Shown in pieces: positions 11,474 through 14,148 of a stretch of 14,148 nucleotides of DNA (its first letter is position 1; each line of letters starts with the position of its first letter). A program made the position numbers and the translations under genes. The notes beneath the pieces are model-generated. The model was not told where the DNA came from and did not search any database. It saw only the letters and a program-made list of their open reading frames with translations. The DNA comes from a virus: UHGV virus genome UHGV-1727423. One strand, written 5' to 3'.

Positions 11474-14148
11474 ATGGGTAAAGGCAGCAGTAAGGGGCAT
11501 ACTCCGCGCGAAGCGAAGGACAACCTGAAGTCCACGCAGTTGCTGAGTGTGATCGATGCCATCAGCGAAGGGCCGATTGAAGGTCCGGTGGATGGATTAA
11601 AAAGCGTGCTGCTGAACAGTACGCCAGTGCTGGACAGTGAGGGGAATACCAACATCTCCGGCGTCACGGTGGTGTTCCGGACCGGTGAGCAGGAGCAGAC
11701 ACCGCCGGAGGGATTTGAATCCTCCGGCTCCGAGACGGTGCTCGGTACAGAAGTGAAATACGACACGCCGATCACCCGGACCATCACGTCGGCAAACATT
11801 GACCGACTGCGTTTTACCTTCGGCGTGCAGGCACTGGTGGAAACCACCTCAAAGGGGGACAGGAATCCGTCGGAAGTCCGCCTGCTGGTTCAGATACAGC
11901 GTAATGGTGGCTGGGTGACGGAAAAAGACATCACCATTTAGGGCAAAACCACCTCGCAGTATCTGGCCTCGGTGGTGGTGGGTAACCTGCCGCCGCGCCC
12001 GTTCAATATACGGATGCGCAGGATGACGCCGGACAGCACCACAGACCAGCTGCAGAACAAAACGCTCTGGTCGTCATACACCGAAATCATCGATGTGAAA
12101 CAGTGCTACCCGAACACGGCACTGGTCGGCGTGCAGGTGGACTCGGAGCAGTTCGGCAGCCAGCAGGTGAGCCGTAATTATCATCTTCGCGGGCGCATTC
12201 TGCAGGTGCCGTCGAACTATAACCCGCAGACGCGGCAATACAGCGGTATCTGGGACGGAACGTTTAAGCCGGCATACAGCAACAACATGGCCTGGTGTCT
12301 GTGGGATATGCTGACCCACCCGCGCTACGGCATGGGGAAACGTCTTGGTGCGGCGGATGTGGATAAATGGGCGCTGTATGTCATCGGCCAGTACTGCGAC
12401 CAGTCAGTGCCGGACGGCTTTGGCGGCACGGAGCCGCGCATCACCTGTAATGCGTACCTGACCACACAGCGCAAGGCGTGGGATGTGCTCAGTGATTTCT
12501 GCTCGGCGATGCGCTGTATGCCGGTATGGAACGGGCAGACGCTGACGTTCGTGCAGGACCGACCATCAGATAAGGTGTGGACCTATAACCGCAGTAATGT
12601 GGTGATGCCGGATGATGGCGCGCCGTTCCGCTACAGCTTCAGCGCCCTGAAGGACCGCCATAATGCCGTTGAGGTGAACTGGATTGACCCGAACAACGGC
12701 TGGGAGACGGCGACAGAGCTTGTTGAAGATACGCAGGCCATTGCCCGTTACGGTCGTAATGTTACGAAGATGGATGCCTTTGGCTGTACCAGCCGGGGGC
12801 AGGCACACCGCGCCGGGCTGTGGCTGATTAAAACGGAGCTGCTGGAGACGCAGACCGTGGATTTCAGCGTGGGTGCCGAAGGGCTTCGCCATGTGCCGGG
12901 TGATGTTATTGAAATCTGCGATGATGACTATGCGGGGATCAGCATCGGCGGGCGCGTGCTGGCTGTGAACAGCCAGACCCGGACGCTGACGCTCGACCGT
13001 GAAATCACGCTGCCATCCTCCGGTACCACGCTGATAAGCCTGGTTGACGGAAGTGGCAATCCGGTCAGCGTGGAGGTCCAGTCCGTCACCGACGGCGTGA
13101 AGGTAAAAGTGAGCCGTGTTCCTGACGGCGTTGCCGGATACAGCGTATGGGGGCTGAAGCTGCCGACGCTGCGCCAGCGCCTGTTCCGCTGCGTGAGTAT
13201 CCGTGAGAACGATGACGGCACGTATGCCATCACCGCCGTGCAGCATGTACCGGAAAAAGAAGCCATCGTGGATAACGGGGCGCACTTTGACGGCGACCAG
13301 AGCGGCACGGTGAATGGTGTCACGCCGCCAGCGGTGCAGCACCTGACTGCCGAAGTCACCGCAGACAGCGGGGAATATCAGGTGCTGGCGCGCTGGGACA
13401 CGCCGAAGGTGGTGAAGGGGGTGAGCTTTATGCTTCGCCTGACCGTGGCAGCGGATGACGGCAGTGAGCGGCTGGTCAGCACGGCCCGGACGACGGAAAC
13501 CACATACCGCTTCACGCAACTGGCGCTGGGGAACTACAGGCTGACAGTCCGGGCGGTAAATGCGTGGGGACAGCAGGGCGATCCGGCATCGGTATCGTTC
13601 CGGATTGCCGCACCGGCAGCGCCGTCTCGGATTGAGCTGACACCGGGCTATTTTCAGATAACCGCCACGCCGCATCTTGCGGTTTATGACCCGACGGTAC
13701 AGTTTGAGTTCTGGTTCTCGGAAAAGCGGATTACCGATATCAGGCAGGTTGAAACCACAGCCCGCTATCTTGGTACGGCGCTGTACTGGATAGCCGCCAG
13801 TATCAATATCAAACCGGGCCATGATTATTATTTTTACGTTCGCAGTGTGAACACCGTTGGCACATCGGCATTCGTGGAGGCTGTCGGTCGGGCGAGCGAT
13901 GATGCGGAAGGTTACCTGGATTTTTTCAAAGGCAAGATAACCGAATCTCATCTCGGCAAGGAGTTGCTGGAAAAAGTCGACCTGACGGAGGATAACGCCA
14001 GCAGACTGGATGAGTTTTCGAAAGAGTGGAAGGACGCTAACGATAAATGGAATGCCATGTGGGGCGTCAAAATTGAGCAGACCAAAGACGGCAAACATTA
14101 TGTCGCGGGTATTGGCCTCAGCATGGAGGACACGGAGGAAGGCAAGCT
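11474..14148 (+). pseudogene. J: Tail tip attachment / host specificity protein J, N-terminal ~890 codons (3' end outside the window), interrupted by an in-frame TAG at 11939-11941
   Basis: ATG at 11474 after GAGGAA. MGKGSSKGHTPREAKDNLKSTQLLSVIDAISEGPIEGPVDGLKS.... Frame is open to VTEKDITI, then TAG, then the same frame continues with no further stop to the window end ([32 protein letters not shown]...DTEEGK) by manual translation. In lambda as recalled the interrupted codon is Lys (AAG). Confidence 0.8.

Follow-up and report, generated by a model that had tools for sequence, protein, structure and literature searches.

An in-frame amber codon in tail gene J and a 29-bp frameshifting insertion in C/Nu3 of a lambda-like element from Escherichia coli: probable early-stage prophage decay

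In a non-suppressing host, a phage lambda carrying an amber codon in gene J is expected to form no functional tails. The J protein itself is structurally well described. In the lambda tail, its HDII-insertion domain is interrupted between strands beta4 (residues 65-71) and beta13 (residues 216-223) by the FNIII-A domain, which ends at residue 215 and contacts gpI (PMC10721106). Defects in morphogenesis genes are also common among the lambdoid prophages of E. coli: of the ten lambda-organised prophages of E. coli O157 Sakai, only three keep all morphogenetic genes (PMC2669165, Asadulghani et al. 2009). On a wider scale, in-frame stops that last for short evolutionary times have been described as widespread in bacteria, and are thought to be mostly deleterious (PMC7918605, Belinky et al. 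2021). Here, we describe a natural amber codon in a lambda-type J gene, which is accompanied by a second, frameshifting lesion in the head genes of the same element.

The DNA analysed, referred to below as the window, is a stretch of 14,148 nucleotides from UHGV virus genome UHGV-1727423. It covers the block of head and tail morphogenesis genes of a lambda-like phage, follows the lambda gene order and is 96.8% identical to lambda across 12.8 kb. The genes are, in order, the 3' end of B, C/Nu3, D, E, FI, FII, Z, U, V, G/T, H, M, L, K, I and codons 1-891 of J. Both edges fall within genes, position 1 inside the portal gene B and position 14148 inside J, so that the C-terminal receptor-binding part of the window J lies outside view. 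Thirteen lambda-type genes on the plus strand (D, E, FI, FII, Z, U, V, G/T, H, M, L, K and I; 1731..11414) are apparently intact, according to the ORF list, the gene order and a base-by-base audit against the near-identical relative L012. The slippery sequence GGGAAAG of G/T, at position 6090, is intact as well. The audit recorded 39 substitutions, and no indel or stop in the window beyond the two lesions described below. Tail assembly and head assembly are therefore each affected by one inactivating lesion, and the window contains no other.

Two side observations concern the length of H and the strand opposite to J. The tape-measure gene H (6523-9072) encodes 849 aa in the window and in relatives L012-L017, whereas in lambda and in E. 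coli S10 it measures 2,562 nt (853 codons by length) and is four codons longer than the window H. This four-codon length variant is common to hundreds of assemblies (295 index blocks). Opposite J, the minus strand has an antisense ORF of 510 aa (12566-14098). Antisense stop-free stretches of 435-580 codons are likewise present in lambda, L008 and L015, and we therefore set this ORF aside as a gene candidate and treat it as an apparent by-product of J codon composition (58% GC).

Gene J of the window starts at ATG 11474 and proceeds through 155 sense codons to a TAG at 11939..11941, in the context ATC ACC ATT TAG GGC AAA ACC, the 5' fragment with its premature stop thus occupying 11474..11941 on the plus strand. 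Past the TAG, the same frame is stop-free for 2,207 nt (735 codons, codons 157-891, 11942..14148) and runs off the window end; this remainder would be left untranslated unless the stop were bypassed. The translated frame aligns with lambda J without gaps, with 869 of 891 residues identical, so that the frame assignment is based on homology and not on a chance opening. Pfam families PF24801, PF13550, PF24421, PF24489 and PF09327 all match J in order. The 5' fragment matches FNIII-A_GpJ at residues 86-155 only, and the families matching past the stop are Phage-tail_3, Ig_J, Ig_J_second and Phage_Tail_Tip. For the J protein of L012, the top PDB match is 8iyk_J. The synteny is also that of lambda, with L, K and I upstream in the window and lom following J in L012 and in L003, another carrier of the TAG. 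By homology, domain architecture and synteny, this is a lambda-type J gene, with its frame interrupted by TAG at codon 156. The identification of the gene as gpJ and of an in-frame amber codon ending it at 155 residues, both made in the initial annotation from the letters of the window, is thus borne out by the alignment to lambda J.

By Pfam, the FNIII-A domain covers J residues 86-207, and the stop falls at position 73 of the 126-position profile (matched part 3-73). Two in-frame ATG codons follow the TAG, at 12014 (codon 181) and 12023 (codon 184). Because the break lies inside FNIII-A, which is nested in the HDII-insertion domain, neither the 155-aa fragment nor products restarted at codons 181 or 184 would be expected to contain a complete folding unit. 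No Shine-Dalgarno-like motif was found upstream of the in-frame starts past the TAG. Reinitiation at ATG 12014 had been raised in the initial annotation: the codon does exist in frame, but reinitiation there is unlikely to matter, given the lack of such a motif and the broken FNIII-A/HDII-insertion domain. Judged from its sequence, the window J is a pseudogene, that is, a null allele. The particles predicted for such an allele deserve correction, since tail-tip-less virions, as originally proposed, are doubtful. In the classical lambda work of Katsura and Kuhl, J reportedly starts tail assembly, and J-null lysates should lack tails altogether and contain tailless heads, not tip-less tails.

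A tRNA scan of the window and the related loci scanned detected no tRNA gene, and an Rfam scan returned no family at threshold. Two marks of stop-codon recoding were thus absent: the stop is unconserved among relatives, and these scans gave neither a dedicated tRNA nor a stimulatory RNA element. The lack of conservation speaks against a programmed recoding site.

The exact 155-aa J product was found on seven other contigs, which belong to three NCBI assemblies (GCA_027679565.1, GCA_027678755.1 and GCA_027679345.1) and four ENA metagenome assemblies (ERZ1745475, ERZ27271708, ERZ27239872 and ERZ27266607), and all seven have the TAG in the same context. None of them is identical to the window, the differences ranging from 0.1 to 2.6%; the same TAG on seven non-identical contigs excludes a private sequencing error. 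These carriers, which include L001-L006, were found solely by exact-protein look-up in a separate collection. When an identical truncated product turns up in independent assemblies, this can serve in practice in place of read support, and it was used here in that way.

The TAG allele is rare. A 61-base query centred on the TAG matched none of the 8,431 J places in complete E. coli genomes (about 4,280-4,306 records) exactly, nor any of 99 phage records; in both sets the best identity was always 98.4%, corresponding to one mismatch. An exact-pattern scan with a TAG 27-mer gave no match in the genome, viral and metagenome contig collections. E. coli genomes having this J region contain a median of three J copies. 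Most TAG-carrier contigs break inside or shortly after J, as would be expected if several near-identical J copies per genome fragment short-read assemblies.

Look-up of the window H protein led to two relatives, L012 (GCA_014186595.1) and L013 (GCA_012400845.1), which share 99.7% identity with the window over 12.8 kb and in which both J (1132 aa) and C (439 aa) are intact. Across the first 700 nt of J, the sole difference between these relatives and the window is A>T at 11939. This comparison identifies the TAG as derived, a single transversion that arose on a haplotype known in intact form. Codon 156 is AAG in lambda and L008 as well as in L012 and L013, so the lambda lysine codon and the single A>T change (K156*), which had been put forward in the initial annotation, are confirmed. 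The near-identical intact relatives sit on long E. coli contigs of 70-872 kb.

The TAG-bearing 5' segment, from 11274 to about 12141, is essentially identical across all carriers. Past 12141, the carriers show different J backgrounds: that of the window, that of L002, an L012-like one in L001, L003 and L004, and that of L005 and L006, in which J is ~2.5% divergent from 12142 on. In L002 and L003, no other J stop precedes the natural stop at codon 1133, and the C-terminal receptor-binding domain is present. The frame is thus open past the amber codon, as first described, both within the window and, in these two carriers, up to the natural stop. Carrier L001 combines the TAG with an intact 439-aa C gene. 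Not all carriers therefore hold both lesions, and the TAG is probably older than the C insertion. The presence of the TAG segment in several J backgrounds means that it has persisted and recombined to some extent, and might point to continued horizontal movement.

The substitutions separating the window from L012 lie mostly in patches, at K codons 42-69 (10227-10308) and J codons 751-891 (13726-14146). Such clustering in the sequence suggests gene conversion with other lambdoid prophage copies. In the K patch, carriers L001 and L003 show the L012 state. Two carriers, both isolate assemblies, have different indels at the same site of J, which corresponds to window ~13911 and J codon ~813: in L001, 11 bp are duplicated after GATGCGGAAG at its position ~12438, and in L004, 76 bp are deleted after GATGCGGAAG at its position ~3226. 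Both are located at most ~125 nt from contig ends and may be artefacts of those ends or additional decay.

The second lesion, at 1306..1334 (plus strand), adds 29 bp within C/Nu3 and is evident in alignments to L008, lambda and L012; BLAST alignments to every relative break at window ~1324-1335. The first part of the insertion is the reverse complement of the 10 bp before it (AGTCTCTTTG), and a 19-bp direct repeat (GAGACTCAATCAACAACTG) follows. This inverted-plus-direct pattern is of the kind expected of a template switch, and it yields a perfect 13-bp hairpin (-13 kcal/mol, z = -4.85). As the structure is not that of a tandem array, the insertion was missed by Tandem Repeats Finder. The resulting +2 frameshift truncates the head protease gene C (373..1440, plus strand), whose product is 355 aa long compared to 439 aa in intact relatives, with the frame lost past codon 311. 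The nested scaffold gene Nu3 (1087..1440, plus strand, mapped from the lambda annotation) is off frame from about codon 74.

The same 355-aa C product is encoded by L010 and L011 (metagenome scaffolds ERZ28666665 and ERZ28624689), which share 99.9% identity with the window and appear to originate from human gut cohorts. The recurrence on two independent scaffolds establishes that the C/Nu3 insertion is real. Scans with insertion-junction 30-mers gave no match in the genome, viral and metagenome contig collections. The insertion overturns the initial proposal of a single, conditional-lethal lesion relieved in suppressor hosts: no amber suppressor can rescue a frameshift in C/Nu3, and any suppression by a host tRNA would therefore be irrelevant for the window.

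The window very probably derives from a decaying lambda-like E. coli prophage with an amber codon in J and a frameshift in C/Nu3. The decay is ordinary and at an early stage, and the second, frameshifting lesion shows that this is not a special conditional mutant. According to the proposed course of events, an A>T transversion would have converted J Lys156 (AAG) to an amber codon, and translation would stop after 155 residues in the middle of FNIII-A, leaving no functional J. A separate insertion of the template-switch type, 29 bp long, would shift the C and Nu3 frames. As essential genes for both tail and head are broken, the element should be unable to build infectious particles alone, and it would persist by being copied with the host chromosome. 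The window contains no host flank, att site or regulatory region, and in the carrier contigs, too, the genes are exclusively phage structural ones; chromosomal integration and vertical inheritance are thus inferred.

As in defective prophages generally, the lesions affect particle-forming genes (J and C/Nu3) and occur in several related genomes (the TAG on seven other contigs, the insertion on two other scaffolds). All other genes in the 14 kb are intact, and in L002 and L003 the J frame meets no second stop up to codon 1133, which makes the decay either recent or slow. The initial annotation had held that further stops or frameshifts downstream would speak for general decay and against a single point lesion. 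Such a frameshift does exist, upstream of J; within the window J, no further stop or frameshift was found. Overall, the data fit a defective prophage that is passed on within its host lineage and recombines with other copies of J.

Several other readings of the locus were weighed. The TAG might be a sequencing or assembly error in a gene that is actually intact, and it does differ by only one base from near-identical relatives. However, seven contigs spanning at least three accession series, all of them different from the window, have the same TAG and context, and repeated substitution to exactly the same codon is atypical of systematic error, which makes this reading extremely improbable. Hardly any credence can be given to a functional two-piece J either, composed of a 155-aa N-terminal protein and a C-terminal protein reinitiated at ATG 12014 or 12023. 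Gene callers do predict a 949-aa ORF from the 12023-equivalent ATG in L002 and L003, and hub domains are spread over different proteins in other phages and tail-like machines; yet the break is within FNIII-A, residues 156-180 or 156-183 would be lost, and the HDII-insertion domain requires strands flanking FNIII-A on either side (PMC10721106). In addition, no restart is preceded by a Shine-Dalgarno-like motif, and no such split occurs among the thousands of relatives searched. A laboratory lambda Jam stock or a cloning vector was ruled out, as identity to lambda is only 96.8% and the carriers are isolate and metagenome assemblies. A functional Jam-type genotype, in which a suppressor tRNA or leaky readthrough would supply enough J for the three copies per virion, is very unlikely. 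The amber codon is the only one in a fully open downstream frame and is found in several assemblies, and natural coliforms with amber suppressors were reportedly described by Marshall and Levy in 1980. Persisting in-frame stops have also been reported as widespread in bacteria (PMC7918605). Against this stand the non-suppressible C/Nu3 frameshift in the same window, the lack of a tRNA gene (in the window and related loci scanned) and of a recoding RNA family, and the absence of the TAG from the complete E. coli genomes and phage records searched.

Another reading is that of an element which is defective alone and mobile within a prophage pool. Co-resident lambdoid prophages would supply J and C/Nu3 in trans or repair them by recombination, and the TAG-bearing genome would go on being packaged and spreading horizontally. 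The median of three J copies per E. coli genome with this region, the at least three to four downstream J mosaics among the TAG carriers and the recombination-like patches between the window and L012 in K and distal J all agree with it, and defective Sakai prophages are released and transferred via inter-prophage complementation and recombination (PMC2669165). Nevertheless, intrachromosomal gene conversion in a vertically inherited element also gives mosaics, and some of the mosaics come from short MEGAHIT-style metagenome contigs (L005 and L006), which are possibly chimeric. Mobility in a pool is on balance unlikely, and it would add to decay without replacing it. A related reading, in which K156amber persists and moves between J backgrounds through polylysogens supplying J and C/Nu3 in trans, or through partial amber decoding in natural hosts, seems distinctly improbable. 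If true, it would mean that a "dead" tail gene is carried horizontally within a working prophage pool.

For practical purposes, prophage decay as the preferred explanation means that annotations should mark the window J as a pseudogene and rate the prophage as defective, with two independent lethal lesions, which is relevant to completeness tools and to induction attempts. The 29-bp inverted-plus-direct duplication in C/Nu3 provides a clean natural example of a template switch. Beyond annotation, the significance of the locus is small.

Compared to lambda J (TipJ family; PDB 8IYK and related entries), the window has the same gene in the same place after I with the same Pfam architecture, and differs by TAG in place of AAG at codon 156 and by 21 other amino-acid substitutions. 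Laboratory lambda J amber (sus) mutants likewise have an amber codon in J that is in principle suppressible. In contrast to them, the window allele is natural, being found in gut-metagenome and isolate assemblies, lies on a non-lambda haplotype and is accompanied by the non-suppressible C/Nu3 frameshift. It thus shares with amber mutants a UAG in an essential gene, but not an otherwise functional genome, owing to C/Nu3. The O157 Sakai prophage pool similarly combines head and tail gene defects in a lambda-type morphogenesis region with signs of recombination; in contrast to those prophages, the window shows decay at an early stage: both of its lesions are small, and its 14 kb contain neither an IS insertion nor a large deletion. 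With the stops analysed by Belinky et al. it has in common a single in-frame TAG, an intact downstream frame and occurrence in several related genomes, but differs in that the TAG is unconserved across species and thousands of J copies, and in that the element contains a second lesion.
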